DNA of 30,447 nt, taken from the UHGV virus genome UHGV-0176192; one strand, written 5' to 3'. Under the pieces are notes generated by a model. The model ran no database searches. It was given only the letters and a program-made list of their open reading frames with translations, and had not been told where the DNA came from. Made by a program: the position numbers and the translations under genes. Positions 15,354 through 25,090 of this stretch are shown here, piece after piece. Source of the stretch: a virus. Numbering within the stretch: position 1 is the first letter of the stretch; every line of letters starts with the position of its first letter.

Positions 15354-16858
15354 TGGCAATTCTTGATGATGTGATTGGTGTTTTTTCTCCCGGCTGGAAA
15401 GCTGCGAGGTTGCGCTCAAGGGCGTTAATTCGCGCTTATGAGGCCGTGAAACCCACCCGCACACACAAAGCCCGACGGGAAAACCGTTCTGCCGACCAGC
15501 TCAGTAAGTACGGGGCGGTTTCTCTGCGGGAACAGGCCCGTTTTCTGGACACCAATCATGACCTGGTAATCGGTGTTTTCGACAAACTTGAGGAGCGGGT
15601 GATTGGTGCAAAGGGGATCATTGTTGAACCACAACCATTACTGAAAAATGGTGATATGGCTACAGAGCTGGCAATGATTATCCGTCGTTTGTGGGCGGAA
15701 TGGTCTGTCAGTCCGGATGTGACCGGGCAGCATACGCGCCCCATGCTCGAACGTCTGCTGTTGCGTACCTGGTTACGTGATGGAGAAGTGTTTGCCCAGA
15801 TGGTCAGAGGCGCAGGTGCCGGGCTGGCGCGGACTGCTGGTGTGCCTTTCTGGCTCGAGGCAATGGAGCCGGATTTTGTGCCCATGCTCAGTGATGAGTC
15901 TGCGGGAATGAATCAGGGGGTTTTTCTGGATAAATGGGGCAGGCCGAAAAAATACCTGGTTTATAAAAATTATCCGGTTACCGGGCGACAGAGCGAAACC
16001 AAAGAGATCGCCGCTGAAAATATGGTGCATCTGAAGTTTACCCGCCGCCTTCATCAGACGCGTGGCACATCCATGTTGTCAGGTGTGCTGATGCGGATCA
16101 GTGCGCTTAAGGAATATGAAGATGCTGAGCTGGTAGCGGCGCGCATTGCTGCGGCACTGGGGCTGTATATTCGTAAAGGAGACGGGCAGGATTATGAGGA
16201 ACCTGTGACGAATAAAGATAATGATCGGGAACTGCATATCACTCCCGGCATTATTTATGACGATCTGCGTAAGGGGGAAGATATTGGCATGGTCAAATCT
16301 GATCGGCCTAACCCTAATCTGGAAACTTTTCGTAATGGTCAGTTGCGGGCCATGGCGGCGGGCACTCGTCTGAGTTTTTCCAGTGCAGCACGTAACTATA
16401 ACGGTACCTACAGTTCCCAGCGACAGGAGCTGGTTGAGTCCACCGATGGCTATCTGATCCTGCAGGACTGTTTTATTGGTGCTGTAACCCGTCCGGTGTA
16501 CCGGGCATGGCTGAATATGGTGGTTGCCGCGGGGTTGCTGAAAATTCCGTCGGATGTGGATATAAAAACATTATATAACGCAACATATTCTGGTCCGGTC
16601 ATGCCGTGGATTGATCCTGTCAAGGAAGCTGAAGCCTGGAAAATCCAGATTCGTGGTGGTGCGGCAACAGAATCAGACTGGGTGCGCGCCAGTGGTCGTA
16701 ATCCGGATGATGTTAAACGTCGGCGCAAGGCCGAAATTGATGAAAACCGCAGGCTGGATCTGGTGTTTGATACCGATCCGGCCTGCGATAAAGGAGGTGG
16801 TAATGCTGAAACAGAACGCGTGGTTTCGCGGCGAACCGAAGGCCAGCCTGAAGAATAA
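15353..16858 (+). CDS. portal protein
   Basis: 501-aa ORF immediately after the W-like gene (TGATG overlap) in the canonical portal position. Confidence 0.85.
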   Translation: MAILDDVIGVFSPGWKAARLRSRALIRAYEAVKPTRTHKARRENRSADQLSKYGAVSLREQARFLDTNHDLVIGVFDKLEERVIGAKGIIVEPQPLLKNGDMATELAMIIRRLWAEWSVSPDVTGQHTRPMLERLLLRTWLRDGEVFAQMVRGAGAGLARTAGVPFWLEAMEPDFVPMLSDESAGMNQGVFLDKWGRPKKYLVYKNYPVTGRQSETKEIAAENMVHLKFTRRLHQTRGTSMLSGVLMRISALKEYEDAELVAARIAAALGLYIRKGDGQDYEEPVTNKDNDRELHITPGIIYDDLRKGEDIGMVKSDRPNPNLETFRNGQLRAMAAGTRLSFSSAARNYNGTYSSQRQELVESTDGYLILQDCFIGAVTRPVYRAWLNMVVAAGLLKIPSDVDIKTLYNATYSGPVMPWIDPVKEAEAWKIQIRGGAATESDWVRASGRNPDDVKRRRKAEIDENRRLDLVFDTDPACDKGGGNAETERVVSRRTEGQPEE

Positions 16859-18863
16859 TTCCTGGTTCAGAATGAAAGCGGGTCATAAAAGTGACGCAGA
16901 TATTTATATCTATGACGAGATTGGTTTCTGGGGAGTTACGGCGAAGCAGTTTGTCAGCGATCTGAATGCGCTGGGTAATATCACCCACATTAATCTCCAT
17001 ATCAATTCACCGGGTGGCGATGTCTTTGAAGGCATCGCCATTTTTAATGCGCTGAAAAATCATGGGGCGTCCATCACTGTTTATGTGGATGGTGTCGCGG
17101 CATCCATGGCATCGGTCATTGCAATGGTGGGTGATCCCGTCATCATGCCGGAAAACGCATTCATGATGATCCATAAACCATGGGGAGTGAGTGGTGGCGA
17201 TGCGGATGATATGCGTGATTATGCCGACCTGCTTGATAAAGTTGAGTCGGTCCTGTTGCCTGCTTATGCGCAGAAAACCGGGAAAACCACCGATGAAATT
17301 GCTGCCATGCTGGCGGATGAAACCTGGATGTCCGGTGCCGAATGTCTGGCACACGGATTTGCTGACCAGGTGACACCGGAAGTTAAGGCAATGGCATGTA
17401 TTCAGTCAAAACGTACAGAGGAATTTAAAAAAATGCCGGAATCCATTCGAAATATGATTATTCCGCCACGCAACAGTGCAACGCGTGAACCTGAAAACAA
17501 AAATACTGCATCTCAGACACAGGATCAGACTACGGCTCCGGTTGCCACAACCGCGACTACCACAAATGCACCTTCCGCAGATGAAAGTAGTATCCGTGCG
17601 CAGGTACTGGCAGAGCAAAAAGCACGTGTGAGTGGTATTAATGAACTGTTTGGTATGTTTGGCGGGCGCTATCAGACATTGCAGGCCAGTTGTCTTTCCG
17701 ATCCGGAGTGCTCGCTTGAGCAGGCCCGTGAGAAATTACTTAACGAAATGGGTAAGGAATTTTCACCATCAAATAAAAATACCCCGGCCCATATTTATGC
17801 TGGAAACGGTAATTTTGTGGGGGACGGGATCCGTCAGGCGCTGATGGCGCGTGCCGGATTTGCTGAGCGTGAACAGGATAACGTCTATAACGGGATGACC
17901 CTGCGTGAATATGCCCGAATGTCACTGACAGAACGGGGGATTGGGGTTTCCGGGTATAACCCGATGCAGATGGTCGGGGCAGCGTTCACGCACAGTACGT
18001 CTGATTTCGGTAATATTCTGCTGGATGTCGCGAACAAAGCCATTCTGCAGGGATGGGAAGAAGCCCCTGAGACTTACGAACAGTGGACCCGGAAAGGTCA
18101 GCTGTCTGATTTTAAAATTGCTCATCGTGTGGGAATGGGGGGCTTCAGTTCTCTGCGTCAGGTGCGAGAAGGGGCAGAATATAAGTACGTCACCACCGGA
18201 GATAAACAGGCCACGATTGCACTGGCGACTTATGGTGAACTGTTCAGCATCACCCGTCAGGCCATTATCAACGATGATCTGAATATGCTGACCGATGTTC
18301 CGATGAAACTGGGGCGTGCGGCAAAATCCACGATTGCCGATCTGGTTTATGCCATTCTGACGTCTAACCCGAAGATCTCCACGGATAATGTGAACCTGTT
18401 CGATAAAACGAAACATGCAAACGTACTGGAGAACGCTGCAATGGACGTGGCATCACTGGATAAAGCTCGCCAGTTGATGCGCGTTCAGAAAGAGGGTGAG
18501 CGTCATCTGAATATTCGCCCTGCGTTCGTACTGGTACCGACAGCGATGGAGTCTGTTGCTAACCAGGTCATTCGCTCCTCAAGTGTCAAGGGGGCTGACA
18601 TTAACGCCGGTATTATTAACCCGGTGAAAGATTTTGCGACCGTTATTGCAGAGCCTCGTCTTGATGATAACAGCCAGACCACCTTTTATCTGGCTGCGGC
18701 GAAAGGTACGGATACCATCGAAGTGGCTTATCTCAACGGTGTGGATACGCCATATATTGATCAGATGGAGGGCTTCAGTGTGGATGGCGTGACAACGAAA
18801 GTGCGTATTGACGCTGGTGTCGCGCCAGTTGATCACCGCGGTCTGGTGAAATGTACGGCGTAA
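16803..18863 (+). CDS. ClpP-family prohead protease fused to (scaffold and) major capsid domain
   Basis: ATG at 16803 after aaggagg. The N-terminal third has ClpP/S14-like motifs (INSPGGDVFEG...ASMASVIAM); a low-complexity linker (TTAPVATTATTTNAP) is followed by a ~400-aa C-terminal domain in the capsid position. Confidence 0.8.
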   Translation: MLKQNAWFRGEPKASLKNNSWFRMKAGHKSDADIYIYDEIGFWGVTAKQFVSDLNALGNITHINLHINSPGGDVFEGIAIFNALKNHGASITVYVDGVAASMASVIAMVGDPVIMPENAFMMIHKPWGVSGGDADDMRDYADLLDKVESVLLPAYAQKTGKTTDEIAAMLADETWMSGAECLAHGFADQVTPEVKAMACIQSKRTEEFKKMPESIRNMIIPPRNSATREPENKNTASQTQDQTTAPVATTATTTNAPSADESSIRAQVLAEQKARVSGINELFGMFGGRYQTLQASCLSDPECSLEQAREKLLNEMGKEFSPSNKNTPAHIYAGNGNFVGDGIRQALMARAGFAEREQDNVYNGMTLREYARMSLTERGIGVSGYNPMQMVGAAFTHSTSDFGNILLDVANKAILQGWEEAPETYEQWTRKGQLSDFKIAHRVGMGGFSSLRQVREGAEYKYVTTGDKQATIALATYGELFSITRQAIINDDLNMLTDVPMKLGRAAKSTIADLVYAILTSNPKISTDNVNLFDKTKHANVLENAAMDVASLDKARQLMRVQKEGERHLNIRPAFVLVPTAMESVANQVIRSSSVKGADINAGIINPVKDFATVIAEPRLDDNSQTTFYLAAAKGTDTIEVAYLNGVDTPYIDQMEGFSVDGVTTKVRIDAGVAPVDHRGLVKCTA

Positions 18864-18886
18864 ACGTCGCAGACAACAACTCAGAT

Positions 18887-18907
18887 GGCCCGTAAGGGCT
18901 TTTTTTG
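18887..18907 (+). terminator. intrinsic terminator/attenuator after capsid gene
   Basis: ggccc-gtaa-gggc hairpin (short stem, GNRA-type loop) followed by 8 T. Confidence 0.5.
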
Positions 18908-18949
18908 TACCTGAAATCAGCCCCGCTCAGGGGCTGTGTGGAGACAGTT

Positions 18950-19273
18950 ATGGCAAAGAATTTTGTAGAAGACGGGAAAACGGTGGCGATTGTTGCTGGT
19001 GCAAATATCAGTAGCGGAGAGCTGGTACAGGTGGGCGATATTTTTGCTGTGGCACTGACCGATATTGCGAAAGGCGAAACGGGAGATGGTATCGCTGAAG
19101 GCGTATTTATGTTGCCGAAGCTGAAAACGGATGACATGAAAACGGGTAAGAAGGTTTATCTGAAGTCCGGAAAAGTTCAGCTGACGAACAGCGGCCCTGA
19201 TCCGCTGGTCGGGGTTGTCTGGGCAGATGCCGGAACCAGTGCAGAAGAAGTGCCGGTAAAACTCAATGTCTGA
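18950..19273 (+). CDS. small head protein (decoration/cement or FI-like), family uncertain
   Basis: ATG at 18950 after ggag; 107-aa Gly/Val-rich protein directly after the capsid gene. Confidence 0.5.
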   Translation: MAKNFVEDGKTVAIVAGANISSGELVQVGDIFAVALTDIAKGETGDGIAEGVFMLPKLKTDDMKTGKKVYLKSGKVQLTNSGPDPLVGVVWADAGTSAEEVPVKLNV

Positions 19274-19541
19274 TCCCTTTTCCCGGCTGGCAGCGCGTAT
19301 GGATGCGATCACGGTCAGAAAGATGGGAAAGACAGCCTCGATTAATGATGTCGATATGACAGTGATCCCGGGAGAAACACTGGCAGAGCTGAATGCTCTG
19401 TCCGGACCTGCGGTCTCTCTGGTGGTGTTTTCTTCGGGATACCGCCCACGGCGCGGGGATCGCGTTGTTTATGACGGACAACAATGGACGGTCACACGGC
19501 ATGAACGCTTTAACGGTAAGCCAATGATCTTTATTGAGTAA
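19266..19541 (+). CDS. head-tail joining protein, gpFII-like
   Basis: 91-aa ORF; ...RPRRGDRVVYDGQQWTVTRHE resembles the lambda FII motif (...LRRGDTLTIGEENFWVDRV); located before Z. Confidence 0.65.
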   Translation: MSDPFSRLAARMDAITVRKMGKTASINDVDMTVIPGETLAELNALSGPAVSLVVFSSGYRPRRGDRVVYDGQQWTVTRHERFNGKPMIFIE

Positions 19542-19552
19542 AGAGGTGTGGG

Positions 19553-20131
19553 ATGAAGGGGCTTGAGAATGCCATCCGCAATCTGAACAGCCTTGATACC
19601 CGTATGGTGCCACAGGCCAGCGCATGGGCGATAAACCGTGTGGCGCAGAAAGCGGTCTCGGTTGCCACCCGGCAGGTTGCCGGGAATACCGTTGCGGGAG
19701 ATAACCAGGTGAAAGGGATACCCCTGAAACTGGTACGTCAGCGTGTCCGGGTGTTTAAAGCCAGTCCGTCAGGAAAAATGACGGCCAGGATCCGCGTTAA
19801 CCGGGGCAACCTGCCCGCCATTAAGCTGGGGACGGCCCGGGTCAGACTGGCCCGGCGTGGTGGAAAACTGCAGTACCGTGGCAGTGTGCTGAAGGTGGGT
19901 AAATATCTTTTCCGGGATGCGTTTATTCAGCAGCTGGCGAATGGTCGCTGGCATGTGATGCGGCGTATTGATGGCAAAAATCGTTACCCCATTGATGTGG
20001 TGAAAATCCCGCTGTCCGGACCGCTGACACAGGCATTTGAAGATGCCCGCGACCGCATCATTACTGCGGAAATGCCGAAACAGCTGGGGTATGCACTGAA
20101 ACAACAACTGAGGTTATGGCTGACACGATGA
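19553..20131 (+). CDS. minor tail protein Z-like
   Basis: 192-aa ORF, same length and map position as lambda Z; agagg RBS. Confidence 0.7.
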   Translation: MKGLENAIRNLNSLDTRMVPQASAWAINRVAQKAVSVATRQVAGNTVAGDNQVKGIPLKLVRQRVRVFKASPSGKMTARIRVNRGNLPAIKLGTARVRLARRGGKLQYRGSVLKVGKYLFRDAFIQQLANGRWHVMRRIDGKNRYPIDVVKIPLSGPLTQAFEDARDRIITAEMPKQLGYALKQQLRLWLTR

Positions 20132-20529
20132 ACCGACATACACAAATCCGCCAGGTCGTACTGGCACGCCTTCGGGAACAGTGTGGAGACAGCGCCACGT
20201 TTTTTGACGGGCTTCCGGCATTTGTTGATGCGCAGGAACTGCCTGCCGTGGCGGTGTGGCTGAGTGATGCACAGTACACCGGAAAAATGACGGATGAAGA
20301 TGACTGGCAGGCTGTTCTGCATATTGCCGTCTTCATCCGGGCACAGGCACCGGATTCAGAGCTGGATACGTGGATGGAGAGCACCATTTTCCCGGCCCTG
20401 AATGATGTACCGGCACTTTCCGGACTCATCGACACCATGAACCCACTCGGTTTTAACTATCAACGTGATAATGAGATGGCCACCTGGGCGATGGCGGAAA
20501 TCACGTACCAGATCACGTACACGAATTAA
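20116..20529 (+). CDS. minor tail protein U-like (tail terminator)
   Basis: 137-aa ORF overlapping the end of Z, in the lambda U position. Confidence 0.7.
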   Translation: MADTMNRHTQIRQVVLARLREQCGDSATFFDGLPAFVDAQELPAVAVWLSDAQYTGKMTDEDDWQAVLHIAVFIRAQAPDSELDTWMESTIFPALNDVPALSGLIDTMNPLGFNYQRDNEMATWAMAEITYQITYTN

Positions 20530-20539
20530 GGAGGTGGTA

Positions 20540-21283
20540 ATGACCACACCAAATCCACTGGCAAAGACGAAAGGTGCGGGGACGACGTTCTGGATGTATA
20601 CCGGCAACGGCGATGCGTTTGCGAACCCTTTGTCGGACACTGACTGGCTGCGTCTTGCGATGGTGAAGGATCTGCAACCTGGCGAAATGACCGCTGATGC
20701 AGAAGATGACACTTATCTCGATGATGAAAATGCTGACTGGAAAACGACAACTCAGGGGCAAAAATCTGTTGGTGATACATCCGCGACGCTGGCCTGGCGT
20801 CCGGGTGACAGCGGACAGAAAAAACTGGTTCAGTTGTTCGACTCCGGTGAAGTCTGCGCGTTTCGTATCAAATATCCCAACGGCACTGTTGATGTTTTCC
20901 GTGGCTGGCTGAGCTCACTGGGTAAAACCATTGCCTCAAAAGACGTGATGACCCGCACAGTGAAAATCAGCGGTGTGGGGCGTCCGTATCTGGCAGAGGA
21001 AGGCACTGAAACCGTGGGCGTTACCGGGCTGACGGTGGCACCGGCATCTGCCAGTGTAAAAGTGGGAGCAACCACCACGCTGACCTTTACAGTAAAACCT
21101 GACGGAGCCAGTGACAAAGCGATCAGTGTGCATTCGACAGATCCACAGACTGCCACGGTGACCCTGAACGGGCTTGTGGCCACGGTGAAAGGCGTGAAGC
21201 AGGGCAGTGTCAGCATTGTGGGCATGACCGCTGACGGCGATTTTGTGGCAGTGGCTACGGTGGCTGTCAGCGCCGCAGGTTAA
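20540..21283 (+). CDS. major tail protein V-like with C-terminal Ig-like domain
   Basis: ATG at 20540 after aaggagg; 247 aa; C-terminus (...VTGLTVAPASASVKVGATTTLTFTVKPDGASDK...) resembles a Big_2 Ig-like domain, as in lambda V. Confidence 0.85.
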   Translation: MTTPNPLAKTKGAGTTFWMYTGNGDAFANPLSDTDWLRLAMVKDLQPGEMTADAEDDTYLDDENADWKTTTQGQKSVGDTSATLAWRPGDSGQKKLVQLFDSGEVCAFRIKYPNGTVDVFRGWLSSLGKTIASKDVMTRTVKISGVGRPYLAEEGTETVGVTGLTVAPASASVKVGATTTLTFTVKPDGASDKAISVHSTDPQTATVTLNGLVATVKGVKQGSVSIVGMTADGDFVAVATVAVSAAG

Positions 21284-21303
21284 CAGGACGATACTCATCA
21301 TTT

Positions 21304-21327
21304 GCCCCGGTTATCCGGGGCTTTTTT
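21304..21327 (+). terminator. rho-independent terminator/attenuator between V and G
   Basis: gccccgg-ttat-ccggggc stem-loop followed by tttttt. Confidence 0.65.
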
Positions 21328-21340
21328 GCAGGTGGAGAAC

Positions 21341-21730
21341 ATGATGTTTCTGAAACAGGACACGTTTAATTATGAAAAACAGTCCGTGATGCTCAGTGAG
21401 CTGTCCGGGCTGCAGAGAATTGAATATCTGGCGTTTGTTCAGCAGCGAACGGCAAAGTTTGATGCCGGGGAGGGAGAACTGCCGGAGGCTGAACGACAGA
21501 TTGCTTTTCTGCGGATGGGGATGGATATCAATGCCTGGCTGGTTTCCCGCTCCCTGTGGAATGCGGATCAGTCTAAGGATGTAGAGGCGCTTTGCGCATC
21601 CGTTATTACAACATGGTCGTATGATGCCCTGGGAGCGGGGGCGGAGATGGTTCTGTCGCTGAGCGGTATGGGAACCATTGAGAATGCCGGGGATGATGAG
21701 CATGAGGCGCTGACGCCGGAAAAGTCCTGA
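21341..21730 (+). CDS. tail assembly chaperone G-like
   Basis: Translation MMFLKQDTFNYEKQSVMLSELSGLQRIEYLAF... closely parallels the lambda G N-terminus (MFLKTESFEHNGVTVTLSELSALQRIEHLAL...). Confidence 0.8.
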   Translation: MMFLKQDTFNYEKQSVMLSELSGLQRIEYLAFVQQRTAKFDAGEGELPEAERQIAFLRMGMDINAWLVSRSLWNADQSKDVEALCASVITTWSYDALGAGAEMVLSLSGMGTIENAGDDEHEALTPEKS

Positions 21731-21738
21731 CGCGGGAA

Positions 21739-22068
21739 ATGCAGTTTGTCATGCGGCTTGCCCGGGAGTTCCGGCGGGCAGACTGGCGGCGGATGTTGTC
21801 GGAAATGTCGGCCACTGAGCTTGGTGAGTGGGGCGATTATTTCCGGATGCAGAGCTTCAGTGATGTGTGGATGGATGCGCAGTTTGCCTCGCTGAAGGCA
21901 TTGATCGTGAGAATGGTGTCCGGCAGCAGTGATGCTGCGGTGGCTGATTTCAGCCTTTTACCGGAAGAGAACGGGATACCGGAGCGAACGGACGAAGAAC
22001 TGATGCATCTTGGGGAAGGTATTTCCGGAGGTGTGCGTTATGGACCAGATAGCCAACCTGGTCATTGA
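21739..22068 (+). CDS. tail assembly chaperone T-like (probably expressed as G-T fusion by -1 frameshift)
   Basis: ORF in the -1 frame relative to G and open from 21706, overlapping the last 25 nt of G; A-rich ccggaaaag at 21716-21724 near the G stop. Coordinates give the ATG-initiated ORF only. Confidence 0.6.
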   Translation: MQFVMRLAREFRRADWRRMLSEMSATELGEWGDYFRMQSFSDVWMDAQFASLKALIVRMVSGSSDAAVADFSLLPEENGIPERTDEELMHLGEGISGGVRYGPDSQPGH

Positions 22069-25000
22069 TTTAGGGATTGATGCGGCAGAGTTTAAAAATG
22101 AAATTCCCCGTATCAAAAACCTTCTGAATGGTGCAGCCAGCGATGCAGAACGGTCTTCTGCCCGTATGCAGCGTTTTATGGAGCGTCAGACTCAGGCCGC
22201 CCGGCAGACAACGCAGGCGGCTTCTTCGGCTGCAACAGCCGCATCCGTCCATGCGCAGACGGTGGAGAAGAGCGCACAGGCTCATGAACGCATGGCCAGC
22301 GAGGTGGAGCAAACCCGCCAGCGCATGGAGGCGCTGAGCCAGAAAATGCGCGAGGAACAGGCACAGGCCATGGCTCTGGCGGAGGCTCAGGATAAAGCGG
22401 TTGCCGCGTTTTATCGTCAGATTGACAGTGTGAAACAGGCCAGTGCGGGGCTGCAGGAATTACAGCGTATTCAGCAGCAGATCCGACAGGCCAGAAACAG
22501 TGGCGGGATTGGTCAGCAGGATTATCTGGCGCTGATTTCTGAGGTTACTGCGAAAACCCGTGTTCTTACACAGGCTGAGGAAGAGGCTACCCGACAGAAA
22601 GTGGCGTTTATCCGTCAGCTTAAAGAGCAGGCAACCCGCCAGAATCTTTCTTCTTCTGAGTTGCTTCGTGCTAAGGCTGCCCAGCTGGGGGTAAGCAGTG
22701 CTGCAGAAGTGTATATCCGCAAAATGGAGCAGGCAGGAAAAGCCACGCATTCGCTGGGGCTGAAAAGTGCAGCGGCCCGCCGGGAGATAGGCGTTCTGAT
22801 AGGTGAACTGGCCCGCGGCAATTTAGGGGCGCTGAGGGGATCCGGGATAACGCTGGCTAACCGTGCCGGATGGATAGACACACTGATGTCACCGAAAGGT
22901 ATGATGCTGGGCGGGGTTATTGGCGGTATTGCCGCGGCCGTCTATGGTCTGGGTAAAGCCTGGTATGACGGTCAGAAGGAGGGGGAAGAATTTAACCGCC
23001 AGCTGTCGCTGACGGGGCATTATGCCGGAGTCACTGCCGGGCAGCTGTGGACGCTCAGTCGTGCTATTTCCGGGAATGGTATCACGCAACATGCTGCAGC
23101 CGGTGCGCTGGCTCAGGTGGTGGGGAGTGGTGCATTTCGTGGAAACGATATCGGTATGGTGGCGAGAGCTGCCGCACAGATGGAGCGATCGGTTGGTCAG
23201 TCGGTCAGCGATACTATAAGTCAGTTTAAGCGGCTGAAGGATGATCCTGTAAATGCCGCGAAGGCTCTGGACAATGAGCTGCATTTTCTTACTGCCACTC
23301 AGCTTGAGCAGATACGCGTCCTTGGGGAGCAGGGGCGGTCCAGTGATGCTGCACGGATAGCCATGTCTGCACTGGCAGAGGAAACCGGTCGGCGTACTGC
23401 GGATATTGATAATAATCTTAATGCGCTGGGCAGTACGCTGAAATATCTGTCTGATTTGTGGAGCCGTTTCTGGGACGCGGCCCTGAACATCGGTCGTGAA
23501 GATTCACTGGATGGGCAGATAGCTTCCTTACAGGAAAAAATTCAGCGGGCGAAAAAGTTTTCGTGGACGAATTCATCCACTCAGGTGGAGTACGATCAGC
23601 AGCGTCTTAACGATCTTCAGGAGAAAAAACGCCAGAAGGATTTGCAGGATGCAAAAGAGCAGGCAGAGCGGAATTATCAGGAGCAACAGAAACGCCGTAA
23701 TGCTGAAAATGCTGCACTGAACCGGATGAATGAAACGGAAGCAGCACGACATCAGCGTGAAATTGCGCGTATTAATGCCATGCAGTACGCCGACCAGGCT
23801 GTCAGGGATGCGGCGATACAACGTGAAAATGAACGTTACGAGAAAGCCCTGGCATCCGGTAAGAAAAAAACACGCGAAACCCGTAATGATGAGGCCACCC
23901 GGTTATTGCTGCAGTACAGTCAGCAACAGGCACAGGTGGAAGGGCAGATTGCTGCTGCCAGACAGTCAGCAGGCATTGCCTCTGAAAAGATGACAGAAGC
24001 GCATAAACAGCTTCTGGCTCTGCAGCAGCGCATCAGCGACCTGGACGGGAAAAAACTGACGGCAGATGAAAAGAGTGTGCTGGCCCGTAAAGATGAACTG
24101 ATTCAGGCACTGACGTTGCTGGATGTAAAACAGCAGGAGCTTCAGAAGCAGACGGCACTCAACGAGCTGAAGAAAAAAACAATTCAGCTGACCAGTCAAC
24201 TGGCTGAAGAAGAACGCGCTCAGCGTCAGCAACATGACCTGGATATCGCCACGGTGGGTATGGGCGAACAGCTGCGGCAGCGGTATCAGGTACAACTGAG
24301 TCTTCGCCAGAAATACCAGCAACAGCTGGAGCAGTTGAGGCGGGATAGTGAGCAGAAAGGGACATATAACACGGATGACTACAGAAAGGCCGAGCAGGCG
24401 CTGACGGAGAGCCTGAACCGACAACTGAATGAGAATCGCCGCTACTGGCAACAGCTTGAAGTTGTGCAGGGTAACTGGAAAAACGGTGCCATACGTGCGT
24501 TTCAGAATTTTACGGCAGAAGCGGATAATGCGGCAGGAACTGCTGAACAAATGTTTACATCGGCATTCAGCAGTGCGAGCGACGGGCTGGCGACATTCTG
24601 TACCACTGGCAAACTCAATTTCAAATCCTTCACCTCTTCCCTGCTGTCAGATATGGCAAAAATTATGGCGCAGATGACTATGATGCAGGCGGTAAAGGGC
24701 GTCGGTTCTTTATTTGGCTTTACGGCTAATGCTGATGGCGGTGTTTATCAGTCTGCTGATTTGAGTCGCTACAGTGGCACGGTGGTTAACCGTCCAACAT
24801 TTTTTGCTTTTGCAAAAGGCGCGGGTGTGATGGGGGAAGCTGGGCCTGAAGCCATTCTGCCACTGCGTCGTGGTGCTGACGGTAAGCTGGGGGTTGTGGC
24901 GGATATTGGTGGTTCAGGTATGGCGATGTTTGCCCCGCAGTACAACATCGAGATCAATAACGACGGCACGAACGGGCAGATAGGTCCGGCTGCCCTGAAG

Positions 25001-25090
25001 GTGGTTTATGATCTCGGGAAAAAAGCGGCAGCAGACTTTATGCAACAGCAGTCCCGTGATGGTGGACTGTATTCAGGAGGCGGGCGATGA
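22040..25090 (+). CDS. tail tape measure protein (gpH-like)
   Basis: 1016-aa ORF, ggagg RBS 8 nt upstream of ATG 22040; long coiled-coil-like Q/A/E/R-rich region and Gly-rich C-terminus; in the lambda H position. Confidence 0.9.
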   Translation: MDQIANLVIDLGIDAAEFKNEIPRIKNLLNGAASDAERSSARMQRFMERQTQAARQTTQAASSAATAASVHAQTVEKSAQAHERMASEVEQTRQRMEALSQKMREEQAQAMALAEAQDKAVAAFYRQIDSVKQASAGLQELQRIQQQIRQARNSGGIGQQDYLALISEVTAKTRVLTQAEEEATRQKVAFIRQLKEQATRQNLSSSELLRAKAAQLGVSSAAEVYIRKMEQAGKATHSLGLKSAAARREIGVLIGELARGNLGALRGSGITLANRAGWIDTLMSPKGMMLGGVIGGIAAAVYGLGKAWYDGQKEGEEFNRQLSLTGHYAGVTAGQLWTLSRAISGNGITQHAAAGALAQVVGSGAFRGNDIGMVARAAAQMERSVGQSVSDTISQFKRLKDDPVNAAKALDNELHFLTATQLEQIRVLGEQGRSSDAARIAMSALAEETGRRTADIDNNLNALGSTLKYLSDLWSRFWDAALNIGREDSLDGQIASLQEKIQRAKKFSWTNSSTQVEYDQQRLNDLQEKKRQKDLQDAKEQAERNYQEQQKRRNAENAALNRMNETEAARHQREIARINAMQYADQAVRDAAIQRENERYEKALASGKKKTRETRNDEATRLLLQYSQQQAQVEGQIAAARQSAGIASEKMTEAHKQLLALQQRISDLDGKKLTADEKSVLARKDELIQALTLLDVKQQELQKQTALNELKKKTIQLTSQLAEEERAQRQQHDLDIATVGMGEQLRQRYQVQLSLRQKYQQQLEQLRRDSEQKGTYNTDDYRKAEQALTESLNRQLNENRRYWQQLEVVQGNWKNGAIRAFQNFTAEADNAAGTAEQMFTSAFSSASDGLATFCTTGKLNFKSFTSSLLSDMAKIMAQMTMMQAVKGVGSLFGFTANADGGVYQSADLSRYSGTVVNRPTFFAFAKGAGVMGEAGPEAILPLRRGADGKLGVVADIGGSGMAMFAPQYNIEINNDGTNGQIGPAALKVVYDLGKKAAADFMQQQSRDGGLYSGGGR

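Follow-up and report, generated by a model that had tools for sequence, protein, structure and literature searches.

A C-terminal Big_2 Ig-like domain on the lambda V-type tail tube protein of an Escherichia coli lambdoid (pro)phage

Results

Organization of the locus

The window analyzed here is the whole 30,447-nt stretch of UHGV virus genome UHGV-0176192, read on one strand. The gene under study lies between U and the G/GT chaperone genes, upstream of the tape measure gene. With its neighbors it makes up a full tail module of the lambda type, in the order Z-U-V-G-T-H-M-L known from lambda. The features of this part of the window are as follows.

19266-19541, + strand: 91-aa ORF directly upstream of Z (Pfam "Gifsy-2," PF13856, E 1.8e-17)
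19553-20131: Z (Minor_tail_Z; Pfam)
20116-20529: U (Phage_tail_U; Pfam), tail terminator
20540-21283, + strand: major tail (tail tube) protein gene, lambda V orthologue, 247 aa plus stop
20591-20995, + strand: N-terminal tube-forming domain of V, residues 18-152 (Pfam Phage_TTP_12, identity to lambda gpV-N, Foldseek)
20996-21019, + strand: inter-domain linker EEGTETVG, residues 153-160 (1/8 identical to lambda; low-confidence model)
21020-21280, + strand: C-terminal Big_2 Ig-like domain, residues 161-247, folded core ~163-244 (Pfam, PDB 2L04, AlphaFold, Foldseek)
21341-21730, + strand: G (Phage_TAC_2; Pfam), tail assembly chaperone
21739-22068, + strand: T (Phage_tail_T; Pfam), in the -1 frame relative to G
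22040-25090, + strand: tape measure (Pfam)
downstream of the tape measure: M and L (Pfam)

The V gene starts at ATG 20540, just after the stop codon of the upstream gene and six bases downstream of a GGAGG ribosome-binding site (20529-20533), and its stop codon occupies 21281-21283. This start agrees with the 744-nt gene annotated in phage cdtI and with Met1 of lambda gpV. A GTG start at 20465, which would yield a 272-aa product, was rejected since it overlaps gene U, has no ribosome-binding site and finds no support among homologues. Both the tube domain and the Ig domain are read in a single frame from one uninterrupted ORF (20540-21283). On this ground we rejected a programmed frameshift or a separate ORF, of the kind seen in SPP1 gp17.1*, as the origin of the Ig domain.

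The original prediction, made from the letters and their ORFs, assumed a V-like protein of 247 aa and placed an Ig-like domain in its residues ~160-247. This description proved accurate: the C-terminal peptide of ~90 residues that it quoted was found exactly, as the 87 residues 161-247 encoded by nt 21020-21280. The nucleotide span that it gave, 21000-21283, was correct at its end but approximate at its start, which falls out of frame (translation from 21000 produces 9 stops, and codon 154 of V begins at 20999).

Distribution of the V gene

At the DNA level, the V gene is 96-98% identical over its full length to its counterparts in phages cdtI, Ayreon, phi458, Tritos, and mEp460; the cdtI gene, at 98% DNA identity, is annotated as major tail protein. 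These phages and E. coli prophages thus carry effectively the same gene, with a few substitutions only. The likeness extends beyond V, as the same five phages match the second half of the window at 92-93% identity across 95-98% of its length. The closest protein cluster (P0002) is 98-99% identical to V and holds 3612 member sequences, and precomputed Pfam architectures give a tube domain followed by Big_2 for nearly all V homologues. The V gene was found in 1846 of 5426 complete E. coli genomes, nearly always on the chromosome, so that the window represents a lambdoid prophage or phage that is common in E. coli.

Sequence evidence for a two-domain tail tube protein

The identification of the product as a V-like major tail protein was borne out by PDB matches to lambda gpV, by Pfam and PHROGs profiles, and by the gene neighbors. 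In a search of all PDB chains, the top sequence match of V was the tail core protein V of Escherichia phage YDC107 (9MFE; E 2.7e-88, residues 1-245), and residues 1-245 aligned colinearly and without gaps to residues 1-245 of lambda gpV (6P3E and 8IYK; E 3.8e-86). The tube domain matched PDB entries 2K4Q and 7T2E at E ~1e-65. Phage_TTP_12 was detected on residues 18-152 over the whole model (1-135; E 7.6e-67), and V as a whole matched phrog_41, "major tail protein," along residues 1-246 (profile length 245; E 1.4e-122). An N-terminal tube domain homologous to gpV-N is therefore joined to the C-terminal region in a colinear, two-domain arrangement within a single frame, free of any programmed frameshift.

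The C-terminal part gave equally specific results. Residues 160-245 alone matched the Ig-like domain of lambda gpV in its NMR structure 2L04 (E 6.5e-14), which was solved in 2010. In the Pfam search, Big_2 (PF02368) was found on residues 161-241 and covered profile positions 2-79 of 79 (78/79) with E 3.1e-12; the isolated domain scored 46.7 bits, beyond the gathering cut-off of 22.8 bits. The scores of Phage_TTP_12 and Big_2 in V both lie well past their Pfam cut-offs. The isolated Ig domain also matched Ig-bearing major tail, structural, and fibre proteins in PHROGs. Judged from these sequence matches, the beta-rich C-terminal pattern of V is not a product of chance.

Comparison with lambda showed that the likeness is uneven along the protein. 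The tube domain is 62.5% identical to lambda residues 1-152, while the Ig domain is 44.7% identical to that of lambda and the linkers are unrelated (1/8 identical positions). The two Ig domains are nevertheless of equal length and align without gaps. YDC107 V has the same two-domain layout, and represents a lambda-like allele at a distance similar to that of lambda itself; in the 9MFE chain matched by Foldseek, the N-domain (154 residues) is the part that was modelled.

Predicted structure of V

A usable AlphaFold model of V was built with a 50-sequence alignment of homologues (alignment A1). In this model residues 161-247 have pLDDT values of 83-94 and eight beta strands across 163-244 (163-167, 170-175, 178-186, 195-199, 205-210, 213-218, 222-230, and 236-244), forming an Ig-like beta-sandwich of ~80 residues at the predicted position. 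The eight strands match the "two four-stranded sheets" described for lambda gpV-C (PMC8718954). Foldseek superposed the Ig domain on 2L04 with a TM of 0.82 and an rmsd of 1.8 A over 84 columns, and on the Big_2 domain of a Paenibacillus Big_2-CBM56 protein (7QUZ) with an rmsd of 1.4-1.6 A. Thus, profile search, homology to a solved structure and structure prediction all place a Big_2 domain in the last ~87 residues of V, as had been proposed.

The model as a whole is less certain, with an overall pLDDT of 68, a pTM of 0.44 and an N-domain of only moderate confidence. The segments of low confidence (1-12, 48-79, and 147-157) fall on regions that are dynamic in lambda gpV-N (1-14, 50-78, and 149-153), the last of which corresponds to the linker of V (PMC8718954). 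The tube domain matched the lambda gpV-N structures 7T2E, 2K4Q, and 8K36 in Foldseek, and the best PDB match of the entire model was full-length lambda V (E 6e-28), at a global rmsd of 15-16 A, so that the orientation of the two domains in the model is not meaningful.

We also considered whether the C-terminal region might be no folded domain, but a chance beta-prone tail rich in Val, Thr, and Ala, or a mis-called or fused ORF. Its composition, rich in V, T, A, and G, would suit such a tail, and AlphaFold run on the single sequence of whole V returned a mean pLDDT of 40.7. The Pfam and PDB matches (E 3e-12 and 6.5e-14), the confident alignment-based model that matches 2L04, and the occurrence of the same two-domain ORF in isolated phages and in 1837 E. 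coli genomes all speak against it. The Pfam, PDB, AlphaFold, and Foldseek results refute this reading, which we hold to be practically untenable.

Further Foldseek matches of the Ig domain included T5 pb6, the phi29 capsid protein, the N4 capsid, SU10, and Leptospira LigA. [quoted passage not shown]

Divergence between the two domains

Averaged over 49 full-length relatives, identity to V was 84% for the tube domain, as against 62% for the Ig domain. From P0028, a very common E. coli allele, V differs at 7 positions in residues 1-157 and at 30 in residues 158-247 (alignment A1). The tube domains of these two alleles are 95% identical and the Ig domains 67%, and divergence jumps near the domain boundary. 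Faster change in the Ig domain fits an exposed accessory module. It may reflect relaxed constraint, diversifying selection, or exchange by recombination, that is, either mosaicism at the level of domains or quicker evolution of the exposed domain. We regard it as unlikely that the Ig domain of this prophage lineage is an exchangeable or positively selected module whose alleles have been selected for differing surface-glycan or mucus ligands. If this were true, the tail tube would be a second, tunable determinant of host range or niche.

Damaged V alleles also occur in public genomes. The version in Shigella dysenteriae (P0071, P0073, P0079, and P0093) is a 227-aa V in which a 20-residue in-frame deletion takes out the ...VGATTTLTFTVKPDGASDK stretch within the Ig domain; this protein no longer scores as Big_2. 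In P0095 and P0102, residues 1-176 of V are fused to a PF12421 region; a deletion within the prophage, from V into a downstream tail gene, appears to have joined the two. P0084 carries a frameshift inside the Ig domain.

Discussion

The region analyzed almost certainly encodes the Big_2 Ig-like domain at the C-terminus of a tail tube protein of the lambda gpV type, in a lambdoid E. coli (pro)phage that groups with cdtI, mEp460, and Ayreon. This architecture is already known and of textbook standing, and the gene is near-identical to annotated phage genes. V shares its N-terminal fold with lambda gpV, in which a short linker likewise leads to a C-terminal Big_2 domain (2L04 for the isolated domain; full-length structures 6P3E, 7T4F, and 8IYK). 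A review table of tail tube proteins with Ig domains includes the Big_2 domain of lambda gpV (PMC9022992, Table 3), and in enterobacterial siphophage clusters Ig-like domains are found on ~70% of tail tube proteins (PMC9022992). The gene at 20540-21283 should accordingly be annotated as a tail tube protein of the lambda V type that ends in a Big_2 decoration domain. Beyond annotation the importance of this assignment is small, the allele being a further natural variant whose Ig domain is 45% identical to that of lambda. It would lend itself to comparisons in which the domain is deleted or exchanged, and it does not make the question of adhesion vs. stabilization newly testable.

By homology to the cryo-EM structures of lambda (6P3E, 8IYK, and 8K36; PMC8718954; PMC12617516), the N-domains of V would assemble into stacked hexameric rings that enclose the tape measure protein. 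One Ig domain per subunit would then stand outside the tube, giving a few hundred copies per tail, and by the same homology the domain would be an accessory that is dispensable for tube building. In Ur-lambda, the tube consists of 31 gpV discs (PMC12617516). In lambda, the Big_2 fold of gpV-C lies on the exterior of the tube, parallel to its axis (PMC8718954). The Big_2 domain of T5, by comparison, points outward at a right angle and does not touch the tube (PMC8718954). Equivalent Ig domains are dispensable in SPP1 and other phages (PMC8718954; PMC9022992). The domain probably raises infectivity by two routes. It would touch the neighboring subunit laterally, at its beta1-beta2 loop, with an effect on tail assembly or stability, and it would also form a dense, weakly binding array for host surface glycans, and possibly for mucus.

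The first route would make the Ig domain chiefly a structural or assembly element that braces neighboring subunits and aids polymerization or stability, as opposed to an adhesin, and we consider this a real possibility that falls somewhat short of probable. In lambda, the contact of gpV-C with the adjacent subunit is small and involves its beta1-beta2 loop (PMC8718954), and the Ig domain adopts three ordered helical arrangements on the Ur-lambda tube (PMC12617516). In the account of Pell et al. (2010) relayed by PMC8718954, removal of gpV-C lowers biological activity ~100-fold, but tails still form, which sits less easily with a role in assembly. The Ig density of lambda in cryo-EM is also weak and flexible, and an Ig-Ig interface was not resolved (PMC8718954; PMC9022992). 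With the Ig domain of V at only 45% identity to that of lambda, the lateral contact may not be conserved here, and the quick divergence of the domain fits a tightly constrained interface poorly. Moreover, a structural role does not exclude adhesion.

The second route would make the domain chiefly a weak glycan-binding module that improves capture of the phage by LPS, capsule sugars, or gut mucus ahead of receptor engagement by the tip protein J; this too is a real possibility, although we stop short of calling it probable. Weak binding to surface carbohydrates, as the original prediction also suggested, is the standard, if unproven, hypothesis for phage Ig-like domains, and is credited to Fraser et al. 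(2006) by PMC10721106, PMC8718954, and PMC9022992. T4 Hoc binds mucin, in a report cited by PMC9022992, and the structural neighbors of the V domain include a Big_2 domain beside a carbohydrate-binding module (7QUZ) and the Leptospira adhesin LigA. Rapid divergence of an exposed domain is compatible with changing ligands, but relaxed constraint would explain it equally well. Adhesion "remains to be experimentally verified" for tail tube proteins (PMC8718954), a ligand having been demonstrated for no tail tube Big_2 domain, that of lambda gpV-C included (PMC8718954; PMC9022992), and no binding-site motif was identified in the Ig domain of V. The stabilizing role and the weak-adhesion role of the V domain are both live, and they are not mutually exclusive.

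Other features of the window

Unlike the tail, the head module of this phage (16611-19273, + strand) does not resemble that of lambda.

16611-19273, + strand: head module, with one long ORF that combines a ClpP-type protease (residues 109-255) and Phage_capsid_4 (residues 452-747)
18905-19273, + strand: Phage_cement_2 decoration protein, after the protease/capsid ORF

Given a non-lambda head of a ClpP-protease/capsid fusion plus a cement protein, and a lambda-type tail, the phage is a mosaic, like cdtI and mEp460. The Pfam description of PF13856, "ATP-binding sugar transporter from pro-phage," looks misleading for the ORF at 19266-19541. Its position makes a head-tail joining or tail completion protein more likely, and phage cdtI annotates the counterpart as a minor tail protein.

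Another stretch, 7690-11846, is 94% identical to the region of Stx2e phage phiP27 that bears stxA2e/stxB2e (phiP27 15528-21321). It contains the following features.

8222-9268, + strand: DNA methylase gene, upstream of the tRNA pair
9437-9512, + strand: tRNA-Thr(TGT)
9516-9590, + strand: tRNA-Gly(TCC)
10152-10544, + strand: holin (lysis gene), downstream of the tRNA pair
10806-11189, + strand: M15 peptidase (lysis gene), downstream of the tRNA pair

The phiP27 span is ~1.6 kb longer than 7690-11846, and this stretch of the window has no toxin-sized ORF; it therefore looks like a phiP27-like late-region layout from which the stx operon is missing.

Within the late operon, the 57-nt gap between V and G contains a perfect 7-bp, all-G+C hairpin (GCCCCGG TTAT CCGGGGC) followed by TTTTTT (21304-21327, + strand), and the same 24-mer occurs at the equivalent site in phage cdtI (L001, 8961-8984). 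The hairpin could attenuate transcription or stabilize the V message, and so give a high ratio of V to G, T, and H.

The T frame (-1 relative to G) is open from 21706 and the G stop lies at 21728-21730, so any G-T frameshift would be confined to 21706-21730. The GGGAAAG slippery heptamer of lambda was not found in this overlap. The lone candidate slip site is G GAA AAG at 21718-21724 (a Lys A-AAG slip), and a GGGAAAT lies just past the G stop.

The tape measure protein is 1016 aa long from ATG 22040 (1026 aa from the listed TTG), whereas lambda gpH has 853 aa (PMC12617516). If the tape measure sets tail length in proportion, this tail would exceed that of lambda by about a fifth and would carry correspondingly more copies of V and its Ig domain.
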